From a virus (lineage: Duplodnaviria; Caudoviricetes), in IMG/VR virus record IMGVR_UViG_3300021431_000119, positions 5,093 to 69,092 of that record: 64,000 nt of DNA. One strand, written 5' to 3'. Under the pieces are notes generated by a model, which was given only the letters and a program-made list of their open reading frames with translations, had not been told where the DNA came from and did not search any database. Positions 2,446-29,325 of this stretch are shown in pieces. The position numbers were made by a program, and so were the translations under genes. The number at the start of each line of letters is the position of its first letter. Within the stretch, counting starts at the first letter, position 1.

Positions 2446-3573
2446 TTACTCCATTGAGACGGCGACGGCGAGCAGGTCGTCCATGTCCGTGGACTGGTAG
2501 TGGTCGCGAGTGAAGGCGTAGTTCGTGTGACCCATCAGGCCTGCCTTCGCTTTGTCGCTGCCCTCTGCGGCCTTCAACTTGTCGCTGTAGGTGTGCCTGG
2601 CACAGTACGGAACCTTGCCTTCCGCAATGCCAAGACGGGCCATCATGGGCTTGAAAACGCTTTCCCGGAAGTACGCATCCGACATTTGGCTGAAGCCGAT
2701 GAGGATGTCCTTTCCCTTCTTCCAGACATAACGCGGGAAAAGCAGGTCTGTTCCGGGAACCCAGAGCCGGGAACGAACAATGTCGAGTATTTGCGGAGGA
2801 ATGACCACGATCCTGTCCCTGCCCGCTTCGGTTTTGCTTCCGTTGACCAGAACCTCAATGCCGTCAATGATCTTGTAGTGCTCTTTCCGCAAGGACAGGA
2901 ACTCGCCAGGACGGAAGCCAAGATAGCATAAACAGACCACATATGAAGCGTACCGCTCCCTTGGTATGGCGTTCACGATGACGGCCAGTTCTTTTTCTGT
3001 GATCGGCTCCCGCTGGATCGTCGCATGCTTTCCAACAAACAGGTGACCCGTGACGTCTTTGTCAAGGATGTTCTTGTCCAGCGCGTAGGCCCAGAGCAGC
3101 CCGGCTACCACCTTCATGTTTTCATGGGTGCGCTTCCCGGCCTTACAGGCGTCCATGCAGGATTGAAGGTCGGCTGCTGTGATGAGGTCAATGTACTTCG
3201 TGTGGAGCGATGAGAAGTGCTTATATGCAGAAAGATAATTGACCATCGTGGACGCACCGACACGGGGAGAATAGTACGGTTCCCATTCATCGTAAAGATT
3301 CTGGAGCGTGTACCGGGATGGGCGCTTTTTCTCTTTTTTCGCGCTCAGGAAAAGCGTGGCGCAGTAATTGATGGCTTCCTTCTTTGTAGCGAAACCGTCC
3401 TTTGTGCGCCAGTCCGGGATCTTGTGGGTGCCGTCACGAGAGAGCTTCCACCCTACAATGACGCGGGCCTGCCAGTACTTTCCGCGCAGGACAGCCGTGC
3501 CGGTTCCGTTTGCTCTGGTGCGGGACTTTCTGGCTTTCTTTTCCTCACTCATACTCCACATACCCTTCATCAA
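2446..3573 (-). CDS. int: Tyrosine recombinase (phage integrase)
   Basis: GFRPGE (R), CARHTY (HxxR-like), MGHTNY (H, Y) catalytic motifs; adjacent to attP. Confidence 0.93.
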   Translation of the reverse strand: MMKGMWSMSEEKKARKSRTRANGTGTAVLRGKYWQARVIVGWKLSRDGTHKIPDWRTKDGFATKKEAINYCATLFLSAKKEKKRPSRYTLQNLYDEWEPYYSPRVGASTMVNYLSAYKHFSSLHTKYIDLITAADLQSCMDACKAGKRTHENMKVVAGLLWAYALDKNILDKDVTGHLFVGKHATIQREPITEKELAVIVNAIPRERYASYVVCLCYLGFRPGEFLSLRKEHYKIIDGIEVLVNGSKTEAGRDRIVVIPPQILDIVRSRLWVPGTDLLFPRYVWKKGKDILIGFSQMSDAYFRESVFKPMMARLGIAEGKVPYCARHTYSDKLKAAEGSDKAKAGLMGHTNYAFTRDHYQSTDMDDLLAVAVSME

Positions 3574-3742
3574 AGAGCTGGCCGGAGGTGATGTGCTTCA
3601 TCTCGTGACGGTAGGTCTTCCGCTGCTGCTCCTTCGACAGACGGGAGTTCAGGACAATGCATGGCTCGTAATCCACGCCGAGACAGCAGAAGCCGCGAAT
3701 CTTTTCCGGAAGGTCCTGAAGGATAACTGGGACTTCATTCAT
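3545..3742 (-). CDS. ImmA/IrrE-like metallopeptidase (antirepressor)
   Basis: HEMKH (HExxH) motif, between repressor and integrase. Confidence 0.8.
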   Translation of the reverse strand: MNEVPVILQDLPEKIRGFCCLGVDYEPCIVLNSRLSKEQQRKTYRHEMKHITSGQLFDEGYVEYE

Positions 3743-4100
3743 CTGGCATCCTTCCTTTGGCGATGTTTTTCAGAATGGCGTTGACCGGGCGCAGGTCATC
3801 AGGAGAAAGGGTCTTGACCACGTCGAAAAGCGTACGGTACTCCTGATCCTGATGCATCAGATCAATGATGGTGTACGACAACTCTGCATCGCCTGGTTCT
3901 TCGTCCGACATCAGGTAACTGACAGGGACATTATAGAAATCCGCGAGGAGTTTCAGGTTCTTCCGGGACGGCGTTCGAATGCCGAGCTCGTATTGTCCGG
4001 CCGTGGTTTGGGCGATTTTTCCGCCGAGCGCGTCGGACAGCTCCTTCTGGGTCAGGCCCCTTGATTTTCTCAGGTTGTACAAGGCTTTTCCGATGGACAT
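3735..4100 (-). CDS. CI-like XRE-family repressor
   Basis: LRKSRGLTQKELSDAL...YELGIRTPS HTH; divergent from the cro-like gene. Confidence 0.9.
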   Translation of the reverse strand: MSIGKALYNLRKSRGLTQKELSDALGGKIAQTTAGQYELGIRTPSRKNLKLLADFYNVPVSYLMSDEEPGDAELSYTIIDLMHQDQEYRTLFDVVKTLSPDDLRPVNAILKNIAKGRMPDE

Positions 4101-4132
4101 TTGGTGCGGCCTCCTCTCATAGAAATACGGCT

Positions 4133-4239
4133 AACGCGTTCTGCATTTATAATAACTCAAATATGACGAAAAATCAACTATTTTTTAACTGATTCTTAAC
4201 AGAAAAGGTATTGAAAATAATGCAAAATGCATATATAAT
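4133..4239. promoter_or_regulatory. Lysis-lysogeny switch: rightward sigma-A promoter with 15-bp palindromic operators
   Basis: TTGAAA 4211-4216, 17 bp, TATAAT 4234-4239; AAYGCR-N3-TGCATW-type sites at 4133-4147 and 4219-4233. Confidence 0.75.
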
Positions 4240-4273: not shown

Positions 4274-4486
4274 ATGCAGCGATACGACGCGGTGGAAGTC
4301 GGAAGACGGCTGAGGGAAATGCGAGGGATCCGGACGCGCATCGGCGTGTCAAAGGAGACCGGAATCGGCCTGTCCGCCTTGCAGGGATATGAGCAGGGAC
4401 GGCGAACGCCCGACCCGGATACGATGATCATCCTTGCGAACTACTACAACACCAGCGTCCAGCATCTTTTTTTTGACCAGTGGTAA
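4274..4486 (+). CDS. Cro-like XRE HTH protein
   Basis: HTH with YEQGRRTPD motif; first rightward gene. Confidence 0.85.
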   Translation: MQRYDAVEVGRRLREMRGIRTRIGVSKETGIGLSALQGYEQGRRTPDPDTMIILANYYNTSVQHLFFDQW

Positions 4487-4528
4487 GGCAAAAAGCATTA
4501 TGACAAACGCAGGAGGAAAAAACGAACG

Positions 4529-5029
4529 ATGGCAGATACGAAGACGCTGTACAAGATGATGCGGGCGATGGAGACAGCTGAACGAGGGAAGCAGCTTCTG
4601 GAAGCTACGCGAGACGACCTGGAGGATATCACGGGGGACATCGGGGACGCGATGTGCGAGATGCTGTACGGGGAACCGACAGACCAGAACGTCACCGATT
4701 TCCTGAAGGTGGCGCACACGGACAAATCGACCATGTGGAAGGTGGCCCAACTTCTGCGACAGGCAAAAAAGGCGAAGCTTCCTGCCCCGAAGTTTCTGAC
4801 GGACGCGGAGAAAGCCACGGCGCACATTGGGTACGAATTCATCGAAAAGCCGAGCCGGACAAGCCCGGACGGGCACGAGGCCGAGCGCACCATCGAGCGG
4901 CTGCGGCAGACGCTGGAGGCGCGGGAGAAGGAACTGAGTGAATGCGCTGACCAGCTTTGCCAGAAGTGCGAAAGGTACACGTGCAACGAGTGCAGGTGGG
5001 CGGAAACGAGAAAGGGGATCTTCGAGTGA
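4529..5029 (+). CDS. Phage hypothetical protein
   Basis: RBS GGAGG; C-terminal Cys cluster. Confidence 0.7.
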   Translation: MADTKTLYKMMRAMETAERGKQLLEATRDDLEDITGDIGDAMCEMLYGEPTDQNVTDFLKVAHTDKSTMWKVAQLLRQAKKAKLPAPKFLTDAEKATAHIGYEFIEKPSRTSPDGHEAERTIERLRQTLEAREKELSECADQLCQKCERYTCNECRWAETRKGIFE

Positions 5030-5271
5030 CGCTGGAGCAGATGAGAAAGCTGGACCGGGAACGGATCACCGTGAAGGAAGCCGCCGAAATTCTCGGGTGC
5101 AGTCCTCAGCGGCTCCGGGACGGGCTGGACATCGACGAGGAGCGGCCCGTGGACATGCGGCGGTACCTGTTTCCACACTGCAAGGTTGGGAACCGGCACT
5201 GCATCATGCGGGAAGGGTTCCTGCGGTGGGTGGATGGGACGATGCTGACGCCAGATCTGAAGGCGGAATGA
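5026..5271 (+). CDS. Excisionase-like HTH DNA-binding protein
   Basis: GTG at 5026 overlaps upstream stop; ITVKEAAEILGCSPQRLR HTH. Confidence 0.7.
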   Translation: MTLEQMRKLDRERITVKEAAEILGCSPQRLRDGLDIDEERPVDMRRYLFPHCKVGNRHCIMREGFLRWVDGTMLTPDLKAE

Positions 5272-5273
5272 CA

Positions 5274-5333
5274 GGGCAGGCGAGGCGAGTTATGGCGTGG
5301 CTGGGCGTGTCGGGTCATGGCGTGGCATGGAAC
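5274..5333 (+). ncRNA. GGC-NN pentamer array (candidate VIPR-type guide RNA)
   Basis: GGGca GGCga GGCga GTTat GGCgt GGCtg GGCgt GTCgg GTCat GGCgt GGCat GGAac. Confidence 0.65.
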
Positions 5334-5479
5334 ACACTGGAAAGGAGGGGTGCGGATTGTGGGTAAAAGAAAAGAGCCTGTAAGCGAGGGCAACCGCTTC
5401 AGGCTCAACACCACGGGGTGGTGATGTAAAAGTACGAGAGTATTGTAAAACAAACGGATCAAAAAGTCAAGGAGGAACC

Positions 5480-5974
5480 ATGGTACAACTGAAAGCAATG
5501 TGGGAACCCGGATGGAGCGGTTTCTTTAAGAACAAGGACCCGCAGGCGATTGCGGATGAGATTTACTCCATCAGCGATGAGCCCACAAGTCAGCAGATTG
5601 TTGACAAGGCGAGAGACGAGAACACTGAGTTGCACGACCTTTTTGAGTGGCGGGATGATGTTGCGGCTGAACAGTGGCGGAAGGAACAGGCAAACAACAT
5701 TCTCCGCAAGCTGAAGGTCACCATCATCCCGGACGAACGGCCTGCGCCGGGCACGATGACCAGCATTCCCGTGACGCCCATAACCGCGAGGATGTTCTAC
5801 GGGGATCCTGAGAAGACCAGCGGGTTTGTCAGCGTGATGAAGGTCATGAACAACGAAGACACCTACAACGCGCTGCTGAAGCGGGCCAAGGATGAGCTGC
5901 TGTCCTACGAGCATAAGTACAGCATGCTGACTGAACTGAAGCCGGTATTCCAGGCGATCCACGATATTCTGTAA
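5480..5974 (+). CDS. Uncharacterised phage protein between the two pentamer-array loci (possible accessory factor)
   Basis: RBS AAGGAGG; 164 aa; LHDLFEWRDDVAAEQWR motif. Confidence 0.8.
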   Translation: MVQLKAMWEPGWSGFFKNKDPQAIADEIYSISDEPTSQQIVDKARDENTELHDLFEWRDDVAAEQWRKEQANNILRKLKVTIIPDERPAPGTMTSIPVTPITARMFYGDPEKTSGFVSVMKVMNNEDTYNALLKRAKDELLSYEHKYSMLTELKPVFQAIHDIL

Positions 5975-5981
5975 AGGTTCA

Positions 5982-6662
5982 GCGGCGTTGGTACGGTCGA
6001 GGGCTTGCCCCTCGGAGAATATGTCAAAACACCCAAGAAACGCGAAGGACTGTGCATGACCATACGCGACATTATAAAACACCGCAATACAGAACAGCGC
6101 AAGCCTTCCACCGTGCCAACGCAGCAGAGGAAAATACAGGACCATAAAACACACTAATACACAGCACCTTGTAAACTGAATAATCCCTGCCGATTCCAGC
6201 GAGGGCGCAGCTCTCGAAAAGGACATATCAGGAATGGACAAGACGAGTCCAGGACAGCAGACTACAAATCAGCGAAATTCAGGACTGCACACTACAGAAC
6301 AATATCTTTTTCTGAAGTTTGCGCTTTCGCTGGAGTCGGCAGGGGAAACTCCATCGGTTCTGGCGGGAGCGTGGATAACGCGTCCCAGCACTTGTCATAA
6401 CATCACAAGACAGGACTGTACTCAACAGCACAAGACATTAATTCACGTTCCTACCAGAGCCGATGGAGCACGAACAAACAACTATTTCCGCCAGCCTTGT
6501 TGAGGGCGTGGATAACACGGCCTCAGCTTATGTTCAAACGCCATAGAATAAAATGGTACACGACAGGTCATGACAAAAAAGCGTCAGCACCTATCATGAC
6601 AGATCACGACAAATTAGCACAGAACACAACAATGCAATTCACGTTCTCAACCAGGCTGGCGG
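5982..6662 (+). ncRNA. Four tandem long RNA stems, each enclosing ACA-NN pentamer arrays (candidate guide-RNA precursor)
   Basis: Stems 5982-6008/6099-6125, 6185-6210/6319-6344, 6349-6375/6442-6468, 6488-6512/6638-6662; 13 G:U pairs on the + strand; period-5 loops. Confidence 0.8.
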
Positions 6663-6692: not shown

Positions 6693-7358
6693 ATGAAAAA
6701 GAACGCTAATGAAGTCGTCATCGTCACTCCTGAAAGCAAGATTCAGCATGCCACCATCCGCATCGTCGGGGACAGTGACCTGATCCTGAACAAGATGAAC
6801 GCACGGAACACGCGGATGCTGATGGCTCCGGACCGGAAGGCAGTACGTGAACAGCCGAACCTGTGGGAGGACCTGATTACCTCCATCCACTGGCAGGATC
6901 CACTGCCCATGAAGGATACCTACACGGAAAGCGACGAAGCCATGATGGCGCGGCTGCTGAACGAGAACAAGCCCTGCATCAAGGCGTTCGGGCTGAAGAA
7001 GAGCTTCGGGCAGACTGTGGTGCGGCTGGGGATTGACAAGTACTCCACGAGTTTCGACGCCAGCCTGAACATTGCCGGGAACGGACTGGTTCCGGTGCAG
7101 TTTTCCGGGTGGGCGTACCGGGAGCAGTTGATGAGCCCGAAGCGTGGAGCACCCATCGTTGTGGCGCTGAACCACTTCATGGGATGGGAAGCCACCTTCA
7201 CGATTGACTACCTGGACGGCGTGTACAGCCGTGACAAGCTGGTCGAAATTATCAACATGGCTGGGTTTTCCATTGGCATCGGAAGCGGCCGGACGAGCGG
7301 ATACGGGCGGTACCACGTTGCGGACGTGATCGCGACGGGGAAGGTGAGCGAGGAATGA
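6693..7358 (+). CDS. Stand-alone RAMP/Cas7-like protein (Vipr-like)
   Basis: N-terminal beta strand TIRIVGDSDLI and C-terminal Gly-rich loop AGFSIGIGSGRTSGYGRYHV; RBS AAAGGAAG; no other cas genes seen. Confidence 0.75.
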   Translation: MKKNANEVVIVTPESKIQHATIRIVGDSDLILNKMNARNTRMLMAPDRKAVREQPNLWEDLITSIHWQDPLPMKDTYTESDEAMMARLLNENKPCIKAFGLKKSFGQTVVRLGIDKYSTSFDASLNIAGNGLVPVQFSGWAYREQLMSPKRGAPIVVALNHFMGWEATFTIDYLDGVYSRDKLVEIINMAGFSIGIGSGRTSGYGRYHVADVIATGKVSEE

Positions 7359-28405: not shown

Positions 28406-28608
28406 TATTGATTCCTTTCTCCGGGGATTGTCCGCCCCGGTCGGCATTTTACCTGGTTATAGCTTCGTTTGTCTCTTTCGCAAGCGTCATGATGACGGCG
28501 TGCTGTTCTTCCGCCGTCAGGCTACGCCAACGGTCGGCACCCATGACTTGGGTGTAGGCCTCAATGATCATGTTCACAATCTTTTCCATTGCTATGTTCC
28601 TCCATCGG

Positions 28609-29013
28609 TCAGCCGTTTACAAGGTCATTCCACGCCTCCATGTAGGATTCCGGCGTGATGTCGTCCGGCATGTCGAAACCGTCGGCAGCAAAATGAGCGA
28701 GGTCAATGCGGGCGGTTTCCAGGTCCATGGGCTCATCGTGGGATCCGTTCGGATCATTCTCCCAAAGGGAACGGACGAAATCAGTGGTTGTCATTGTGGT
28801 TTTTCCTCCTTCAAAACAATTTGTAGCGTAAAGCTTTTCAAGGTCGTAATGCCGGACTTCTTCCGGTGTTAGCTCGCGGTTGTAGTCCACCCATCCCCAT
28901 GCGTGACGGTGGGACGGCGTATAACCTTCTGTGTATCCGCACTCTATGAGGCCGTCACGAGGGACGGCGCCGGGTCCTGGCGGACGGAGCAGTGTAGCAT
29001 AACGGGCGATCAT
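28609..29013 (-). CDS. Protein with N-terminal DarA_C-like (anti-restriction-associated) domain
   Basis: RPPGPGAVP...AWGWVDYNRELTPEEVRHYDL resembles DarA C-terminal consensus as recalled. Confidence 0.5.
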   Translation of the reverse strand: MIARYATLLRPPGPGAVPRDGLIECGYTEGYTPSHRHAWGWVDYNRELTPEEVRHYDLEKLYATNCFEGGKTTMTTTDFVRSLWENDPNGSHDEPMDLETARIDLAHFAADGFDMPDDITPESYMEAWNDLVNG

Positions 29014-29043
29014 GTGTATACCTCCAGTCAATTATAATTCGAT

Positions 29044-29325
29044 TCATTCGGGAACGCAAGCGAGATACTCGCCGGAACGGATCCGGGCGGACAATTCATC
29101 TTTAATGGCCCACATATCAGACCAAGAGAACGTGTGCAGCTTCATGATATGCATATCTCCGGCGATTTGATGCTCTATTTCAGCAATCAGGAAACCGAAG
29201 AACGCAGCATAGCCGCAAGCGCTTTGCGGAAACAATCCGCCCATGGTGGCGGCGTATTGCTTGCCGTCAAACTGAATGACAAGGCGCCCTCCGTCGAAGG
29301 AATAGCGAACAGGGTTGTTGGTCAT
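29044..29325 (-). CDS. Phage hypothetical protein
   Basis: RBS GAGGTG; part of leftward operon. Confidence 0.6.
   Translation of the reverse strand: MTNNPVRYSFDGGRLVIQFDGKQYAATMGGLFPQSACGYAAFFGFLIAEIEHQIAGDMHIMKLHTFSWSDMWAIKDELSARIRSGEYLACVPE

Follow-up and report, generated by a model that had tools for sequence, protein, structure and literature searches.

What is a lone tract of GGC-NN pentamers, the repeat pattern of canonical guides of VIPR, a CRISPR-like silencing system of phages, doing in a phage whose own VIPR system is written in a different triplet? The case arises in the early region of a temperate phage from a gut metagenome (Caudoviricetes; IMG/VR record IMGVR_UViG_3300021431_000119), of which we analysed positions 5,093 to 69,092, a stretch of 64,000 nucleotides (nt) that is called the window here and whose coordinates are used below. 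On the plus strand, the 60 bases at 5274-5333 fall into twelve in-phase pentamers (GGGca, GGCga, GGCga, GTTat, GGCgt, GGCtg, GGCgt, GTCgg, GTCat, GGCgt, GGCat, GGAac), the first of which begins at 5274, downstream of the TGA stop codon at 5269-5271 that ends an excisionase (xis)-like gene. The sequence agrees exactly with the units listed in a sequence-only reading of this DNA, which had also claimed that the tract carries the pattern of VIPR RNAs (vrRNAs), that it lies outside any long stem, and that one locus holds two pentamer alphabets. These observations stand: the tract bears the canonical GGY-NN pattern and is distinct from the ACA-NN arrays, folding gives no long stem enclosing it, and the two alphabets are found at the tract (GGC) and at about 5982-6662 (ACA). 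As set out below, the tract looks like a canonical-class guide that entered the phage by insertion and whose code points to the vipr genes of other phages.

The tract stands out from its surroundings far more than chance would allow. All twelve units begin with G and seven of the twelve are GGY, and units 2-11 (5279-5328) form ten consecutive pentamers that each fit G[GT][CT]NN. On both strands of the window, at least six in-phase GGY triplets among twelve units were found at the tract alone, the highest count elsewhere being four, and a scan of the full virus record (69,092 nt; 100% complete according to CheckV) likewise gave no match but the tract. Among related phage loci (1.6 million strand-bases), in-phase G[GT][CT]NN runs reach six units at most, against ten in the tract, and these six-unit runs are mostly the reverse strand of ACA arrays. 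No Rfam family was reported at the tract.

For comparison with canonical systems we used a reference set of at least 120 viral contigs with nine perfect GGY-NN units, together with ten contigs from an earlier pattern scan; boundary statistics were taken from 90 canonical loci with 353 in-phase runs, and the later vipr tests drew on all 130 loci. Staggered arrays with overlapping vrRNAs have been described for canonical VIPR (bioRxiv 10.64898/2026.04.26.720920), and the ends of the tract resemble such arrays. Canonical vrRNAs are small RNAs of up to about 100 nt that co-purify with Vipr and comprise at least four, typically 9-16, tandem GGY-NN units. The commonest lengths of canonical runs are 9-12 units, and the tract has about ten. 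GGCA directly precedes the run in 119 of the 353 canonical cases (34%) and is present at 5275-5278 in the window, while GGCAN is the final unit of 61% of canonical runs as opposed to 23% of interior units, and the tenth unit of the tract is GGCAT. GGCGT and GGCAT are also among the commonest penultimate units. GGCA-bounded arrays go together with Viprs that the profile of the window's own (resident) Vipr family detects (19/29 vs. 9/61 loci; odds ratio 11, p = 4e-6). GTY units are frequent in canonical arrays of the same data set, e.g. in loci L239 and L286, and those in the tract are thus no sign of decay. Similar degeneracy is found in the validated guides of phage SUSP1, which we located in NC_028808.2 (GGY in 10/14 and 13/15 units, with one GTTAA unit), and a canonical array in locus L309 (4618-4667) has the same order of GGC, GTT, and GTC units as the tract, with 40 of 50 nt identical. 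Taken as sequence, the tract therefore appears to be a canonical-class VIPR guide cassette composed of GGCA and ten G(G/T)Y-NN units.

The cassette is an insertion of about 80 nt that is private to this phage lineage and truncates the xis-like gene. Relatives with the same gene order (L004, L005, L006, and L008) have a gap of ~80 nt opposite 5262-5341 and no tract, and the nearest homologues of the xis-like protein (84-88% identical; 6 of 18 aligned, drawn from 5.8 billion proteins) end in ...PDLPGGDAD, as opposed to ...PDLKAE in the window. The displaced old C-terminus survives as the final codons of a 32-amino-acid (aa) open reading frame (ORF; 5268-5366) that overlaps the tract. A contig from run X5 tracks the window to 5262 and diverges beyond this point; the tract is covered by contigs of the source sample alone, those from other runs either ending or parting from the window ahead of it, and no RNA run is listed as containing the stretch. 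An imperfect 9-nt direct repeat (5263-5271 and 5352-5360) flanks the insertion, and the 3' junction sits in a GGAGG. In canonical loci of the GGCA-bounded clade, the array is followed by a GGAGG ribosome-binding site and then by a homologue of the 164-aa gene that also lies downstream of the tract. Because the junction resembles these array leaders, it suggests capture of a canonical array's final guide through microhomology.

No second copy of the tract, searched with the constant triplets of all ten units, was present in the Joint Genome Institute (JGI) metagenome contigs or in 185,579 species genomes, and a seven-unit version of this pattern retrieved only unrelated canonical arrays from viral contigs. 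Against 50,697 phage records, the insert gave chance-level blastn matches only and the whole locus had no match, and single-sequence searches for related loci with both neighbouring proteins found nothing. The closest relative of the VIPR module, locus L001, carries the 164-aa gene and vipr at 91-95% nucleotide identity to the window and lacks the tract, having two other genes upstream.

Which protein could read such a guide? The window encodes a stand-alone RAMP protein of 221 aa, whose model (22 homologues) has a mean pLDDT, a per-residue model confidence measure, of 82.7 and is matched by Foldseek to Cmr4/Csm3 RAMP chains (E = 1e-5, probability 1.0). In viral contigs, the profile of its family also picks out ORFs that neighbour canonical GGY-NN arrays, with E-values as low as 2e-13. 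On the strength of this fold match and these profile matches, the modelled protein is a Vipr in the sense of bioRxiv 10.64898/2026.04.26.720920. It is the only Vipr-like gene product of the 69-kb record, which has no GGY-type vipr. One could suppose that the resident Vipr loads both ACA-NN and GGC-NN RNAs and uses the latter against rivals with canonical VIPR. Cassette and resident vipr share an operon, with the cassette 1.4 kb further upstream. Homology between the resident family and GGY-reading Viprs can be detected, and the outcome, silencing of the rivals' vipr, would be the same. However, in 86 related loci (794 kb) at least six of ten in-phase units are ACA in 50 loci, ATA in 13, and GGY in none, the ACA and ATA arrays occupying the position that the resident arrays have in the window. 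The closest relative of the VIPR module has no tract, and the tract, unlike the resident guides, has no long enclosing stem. The contact residues also differ. In a cryo-electron microscopy study, D177, W178, and R179 of the glycine loop, together with H17 and R138, read G1, G2, and Y3 (bioRxiv 10.64898/2026.04.26.720927), and the SUSP1 vipr gene (28474-29061) encodes these residues at exactly these numbers. At the position of this D-W-R, canonical relatives have E-W-R or E-H-R and the resident family has S-G-R, the whole loop reading G-I-G-S-G-R-T in the resident and G-x-G-[DE]-W-R-P in canonical proteins. With the residues that read G1 and G2 replaced by Ser-Gly and with family arrays of the ACA or ATA type, the resident Vipr is an unlikely partner of the tract, and a second guide class of this protein is improbable. 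By every feature of the resident guides the tract differs: its triplet is GGC/GTY and not ACA/ATA, it has no enclosing stem, and it is absent in relatives. The survey of array types co-occurring with the RAMP homologues, which the sequence-only reading had proposed, accordingly returned ACA and ATA only, and the suggestion that GGC-NN is the true guide or a second specificity class of the resident RAMP found no backing in the 86 relatives, in the Ser-Gly substitution, or in the tract-less closest module.

Two observations concern the resident system itself. ACA-NN reads TGT-NN on the opposite strand (window 5982-6662; L004 3818-3973 (-); L072 4757-4786 (-)), and TGT retains G2 and Y3 of the canonical GGY. 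Non-canonical VIPR motifs GAC, CAC, WGT, and TGH/NN have been reported (bioRxiv 10.64898/2026.10.21.760802), and the "ACA code" may be a reverse view of the WGT/NN class. We also considered the 164-aa neighbour as a second, GGY-reading RAMP and rejected it, since its fold is not that of a RAMP and tract-less relatives also carry it; its model (pLDDT 86.8) gave no significant fold match in the PDB. The gene is found on the same contigs as Vipr family members, and homologues follow canonical arrays in L286 (about 4420-4870), L239 (from 2889), and L118 (from 3276).

The guide itself indicates a different addressee. It was fixed as units 2-11 before any target had been seen, and the published 1-nt-skip rule was applied. 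Read in this way, the NN bases spell E-D-M-V-R-V-G-M-G codons of canonical vipr, on the sense strand and with the skipped base at the wobble position. In 2.07 Mb of loci, five canonical vipr sites head the six best matches. Of the 30 matches with at least 15/20 identical bases, nine fall within canonical vipr ORFs, and these ORFs account for about 0.5% of the sequence searched. Each of the nine is a sense-strand match in frame 0 to one and the same motif (E-D-M-V-R-V/I-G-M-G), and with 300 shuffled guides the number of such vipr matches averaged 0.11 and never exceeded three. Among 42 vipr ORFs, ten match at 75% or more under skip 1 (maximum 17/20), none does so under skip 0, 2, or 3 or with reversed unit order, and ten vipr ORFs are never reached when the unit order or the bases are shuffled (2,000 shuffles of each kind). 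A pattern derived from the guide has at least 120 matches in viral contigs vs. roughly 14 estimated by chance, although this pattern was designed after the matches had been seen and is an illustration, not an independent test. Among the 120 matches listed, 112 lie in ORFs that match the Vipr profile, 108 encode EDMVRVGMG, and 95 score 17/20. A score of 18/20 occurs twice among them, in the vipr gene of L286 and in a 43-aa ORF of L271 that has no Vipr-profile match. At the L286 site (3929-3957), unit 5 corresponds to TGC, and the match to guide units one to eight is complete (16/16 bases; 3929-3951); most canonical vipr genes match these units in 15/16, the difference being a guide U opposite a template G. 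The identity score is typically 0.85 and at best 0.90. The terminal units GGCGT and GGCAT match the target by half and resemble semi-conserved guide ends.

In the L286 vipr (3437-4147), Cys (TGC) takes the place of the Arg that is found in the EDMVRVGMG of nearly all others, and this is the only vipr gene among the matches listed in which the first eight units are matched in full. The L309 guide mentioned above (4618-4677) shares 13/20 NN bases with the tract, decodes to a different peptide pattern, and reaches only 12/20 against its own vipr; it and the anti-vipr guide may be sisters that have diverged.

The guide does not fit its own phage. Against the resident vipr its best score is 12/20, with 7/20 at the homologous place, and 84 members of the resident family score 11-14/20. 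Its best score in the window is at the level of the null, so that no self-targeting is found, and in the reverse direction neither the window nor the ACA-type loci are matched above the null by guides from L286 and L239. The gapped search with the NN code that the sequence-only reading had proposed thus leads to the vipr genes of canonical systems, and of the three roles which that reading had left side by side, the anti-guide comes closest, with a code aimed at canonical vipr, in preference to a true guide or a second specificity class.

These statistics also bear on whether the likeness to VIPR could be accidental, the tract being a decayed pentanucleotide microsatellite, or else a C-terminal extension or a small ORF (5268-5366). 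The insert is almost wholly periodic, GGCGT (three times) and GGCGA (twice) are its commonest units, the 32-aa ORF is coupled to the xis stop by an ATGA overlap, and none of the three plus-strand frames contains a stop codon within the G-rich tract. Against this, the match to one conserved Vipr motif is in frame and specific to skip 1 (p < 1/2000), the boundary motifs fit canonical arrays, and deviations from the unit consensus fall on the NN bases (12/24) more than on the triplets (6/36), as counted in a single copy. The ORF has no homologue, and with no second copy of the tract in any collection searched, its conservation as a protein, which the sequence-only reading had named as evidence against a guide, did not arise. 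Tandem Repeats Finder reported no repeat at the tract even at score 30, not more than two identical units follow each other, and no length variants occur in the one sample that holds the tract. We therefore regard a simple repeat or coding origin as very improbable. An argument from age against the microsatellite (30% unit decay vs. flank divergence) was dropped, as the flanks are only 74-85% identical to those of the nearest relatives and neutral decay of this size is possible.

With moderate confidence, we favour the reading that the tract is a solo guide in canonical code, directed against the vipr genes of rival phages and loaded by the rival's own Vipr, in a phage that itself has an orthogonal VIPR system. 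The end of a canonical array of another phage would have been the source of the ~80-nt insertion at the 3' end of the xis-like gene. The tract has the orientation of the early rightward operon and would therefore be co-transcribed with the cro-like and xis-like genes, the 164-aa gene, and vipr; no further promoter-like or terminator-like site was found on the plus strand between the promoter-like site at 4211-4239 and the tract. Once transcribed and processed, the guide would be loaded by the GGY-reading Vipr of a phage competing in the same cell, and the complex could then sit on the rival's vipr gene and shut down its whole VIPR operon; in that clade, vipr is immediately followed by the array and the accessory gene. 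The resident vipr, which lacks the target, would be spared, and since the resident protein reads another triplet and lacks the G1 and G2 readers, it probably does not load the cassette.

Several points weigh against this. The partner Vipr is hypothetical for this host. The tract occurs once, on contigs of the source sample only, and is absent from L001-L008 and 80 further loci, while conservation is part of the definition of solo guides. The 40-60-nt 3' tail of SUSP1-like guides is absent, a pattern for a junction with a shared tail gave no matches, and the flanks gave only chance matches of 12-13 nt to the 90 canonical loci (blastn-short). Unit 5 (TG) faces Arg CGN in most targets, which would be a U-G wobble if such pairs are allowed, unit 9 is mismatched nearly always, and no exact skip-1 target for all ten units exists in the viral and genome contig collections. 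Finally, a guide captured by recombination could be inert.

This last point can be put as an explanation of its own, in which the last guide of a canonical array, with the leader up to its GGAGG ribosome-binding site, was acquired from a co-infecting phage by illegitimate recombination and is a relic without function. Such a relic would fit a tract that is seen on one contig only, that damaged the end of the xis-like gene, that is flanked by short imperfect repeats with a 3' junction in the GGAGG common to canonical array-to-ribosome-binding-site leaders, and that ends in a degenerate unit with GGAA for GGCA. It sits less well with the code. Among 415 natural guides, only a (CG)8 repeat matches more vipr genes and one other reaches 15/16, and with 1-2 such guides in 415 (about 0.5%), a guide captured at random would rarely look anti-vipr. 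The tract also lies on the transcribed strand of the predicted early operon, with no terminator-like site before it. An inert relic is therefore a possibility that we take seriously but hold to be rather unlikely, and the solo anti-vipr guide remains the reading that we prefer.

Guides of this kind are known from another group of phages. Solo vrRNAs against rivals' vipr were described in VIPR-null phages of the SUSP1 family (Lopez et al., bioRxiv 10.64898/2026.10.15.759431). As in those cases, the present cassette is a GGY-NN guide that stands alone, its element having no cognate vipr, it decodes with a 1-nt skip to a site in competitors' vipr and has a low self-match, and it is predicted to turn the rival's protein on its own gene. 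Its identity to the target lies at or above the 0.8 used there, and above shuffled-guide nulls. In contrast to the VIPR-null carriers of that study, which are Felix-O1-like phages of Enterobacteriaceae, the present carrier is a temperate phage from a gut metagenome and has a non-cognate VIPR (ACA/TGT-NN) with a vap-like gene. Its guide lies in an 80-nt insertion in another gene and not at a vipr-vap deletion scar, has no long common tail, and was seen once, whereas the published guides form a conserved family. In the same study, solo vrRNAs of the F5 satellite redirect the SUSP1 VIPR to repetitive extragenic palindromic (REP) elements of the host (bioRxiv 10.64898/2026.10.15.759431). The predicted reliance on the Vipr of another element is shared with these guides, but they are decoys against host repeats with the 40-nt tail of the helper, while the present one is directed against vipr and has short GGCA-type boundaries.

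In architecture, the cassette resembles the GGCA-bounded canonical systems (L118, L162, L171, L239, and L286). With these it shares the G(G/T)Y-NN units, a GGCA ahead of the guide, a terminal GGCAN, a length of 9-12 units, and, downstream, a GGAGG leading to the 164-aa accessory gene. Those systems have many guides directly after a GGY-reading vipr, in contrast to the lone guide beside a non-cognate vipr. RNA anti-CRISPRs, which are solitary CRISPR repeats carried by phages that occupy Cas proteins and sequester or mis-assemble them, without a target, are likewise guide-like phage RNAs that subvert the machinery of a competitor; the present cassette differs in having a specific target code. 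The resident system is of the kind treated in bioRxiv 10.64898/2026.10.21.760802, in which canonical guides inside non-canonical loci were not described. Thus, solo guides, including those against vipr (10.64898/2026.10.15.759431), and non-canonical triplets (10.64898/2026.10.21.760802) are already published, and the new part is a canonical anti-vipr guide inside a phage with a non-canonical VIPR.

Solo anti-vipr guides have been reported only recently, for Enterobacteriaceae phages that lost VIPR. If our reading is true, the tactic extends to a different phage group from gut metagenomes and to a carrier whose own VIPR, in another repeat code, still looks functional. Immunity to hijacking guides would then be a reason for non-canonical codes to exist, and the locus would provide a natural pair of putatively orthogonal Vipr/guide systems for tool building. 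It is a tentative idea that the two VIPR codes are the outcome of an arms race, in which the changed triplet and glycine loop make a phage's own Vipr deaf to canonical "Trojan" guides while the phage fields a guide that only the rival loads. In that case, attack on vipr by guides would select for diversity among VIPR repeat codes, and orthogonal VIPR systems could be combined by design. With regard to method, 1-nt-skip decoding of a lone pentamer tract gave a target family without any annotation.

Candidate rivals are present among the loci examined. Five target-bearing loci (L239, L251, L275, L283, and L286; G+C content 0.47-0.50) come from IMG data set 3300045988, which also provides 43 of the 80 ACA-type loci. 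In four of the five, vipr is followed by canonical GGY-NN arrays, most of them GGCA-bounded; no canonical array was called in the 4.2-kb locus of L275. L239 and L251 share with the window a replication-region protein at about 50% identity.

The tract is set among the early genes of the phage, and the features of the region are collected in Table 1.

Table 1. Features of the early region around the GGC-NN tract, in window coordinates.
Feature	Position	Strand	Basis or remark
Integrase	2446-3573	-	
CI-like repressor	3735-4100	-	
Promoter-like site of the rightward early operon	4211-4239	+	TTGAAA-17-TATAAT, 11/12; consensus match only
Cro-like gene	4274-4486	+	
166-aa gene	4529-5029	+	
xis-like helix-turn-helix (HTH) gene, C-terminus truncated by the insertion	5041-5271	+	Weak HTH_17 match
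Insertion of about 80 nt, containing the whole tract	5262-5341	+	Alignment with L004, L005, L006, L008
GGCA, 5' boundary motif of canonical staggered guide arrays	5275-5278	+	
Eight putative guide units, NN = ga ga at gt tg gt gg at	5279-5318	+	1-nt-skip decoding: E-D-M-V-(R/C)-V-G-M
Terminal units GGCGT and GGCAT, handle-like	5319-5328	+	Canonical end-unit statistics; half match to target
GGAAC, degenerate last unit (GGAA vs. canonical GGCA)	5329-5333	+	
Relic of the ancestral xis C-terminus and stop	5343-5366	+	Aligns with xis-like gene ends of L004, L006, L008
Two hairpins (5374-5406 and 5409-5423)	5374-5423	+	Folding; older than the insertion
164-aa accessory gene	5480-5974	+	Common to ACA-type and canonical VIPR loci
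Resident guide arrays, ACA-NN on + and TGT-NN on -	about 5982-6662		
Resident Vipr, 221 aa, stand-alone RAMP	6693-7358	+	

The strong hairpin pair directly 3' of the xis-like gene is kept in relatives, with changed stem letters and no T run after it. Counterparts are found in L004 (about 2634-2668) and L005 (about 2627-2657), and the first hairpin is kept in L004, L005, and L008, all without the tract; the hairpins are therefore not a tail specific to the guide. Possible roles are RNA processing or attenuation within the early operon.

Related loci show further variation. L001 (1-2864), L002, and L003 are mosaic in this region: their 164-aa gene and vipr are 91-95% identical to those of the window at the nucleotide level, but two unrelated genes (129 and 224 aa) stand between the xis-like and the 164-aa gene. 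The ACA array of L001 is much longer, with ACA in 10/10 in-phase units across about 2186-2325. In some ACA-type loci, namely L060 (5809-5868) and L066 (5845-5904), a small hydrophobic ORF just after vipr gives 5/10 in-phase GGY from codon usage alone, so that weak pentamer signals can be coding and should be viewed with caution. Finally, hypothetical proteins of cultured Mycobacterium and Gordonia phages (H10-H39; e.g. Quico, Florinda, Saal, and Pipp) are 36-38% identical to the canonical Vipr of L162, so that laboratory phages may offer VIPR systems of the GGCA-bounded clade.
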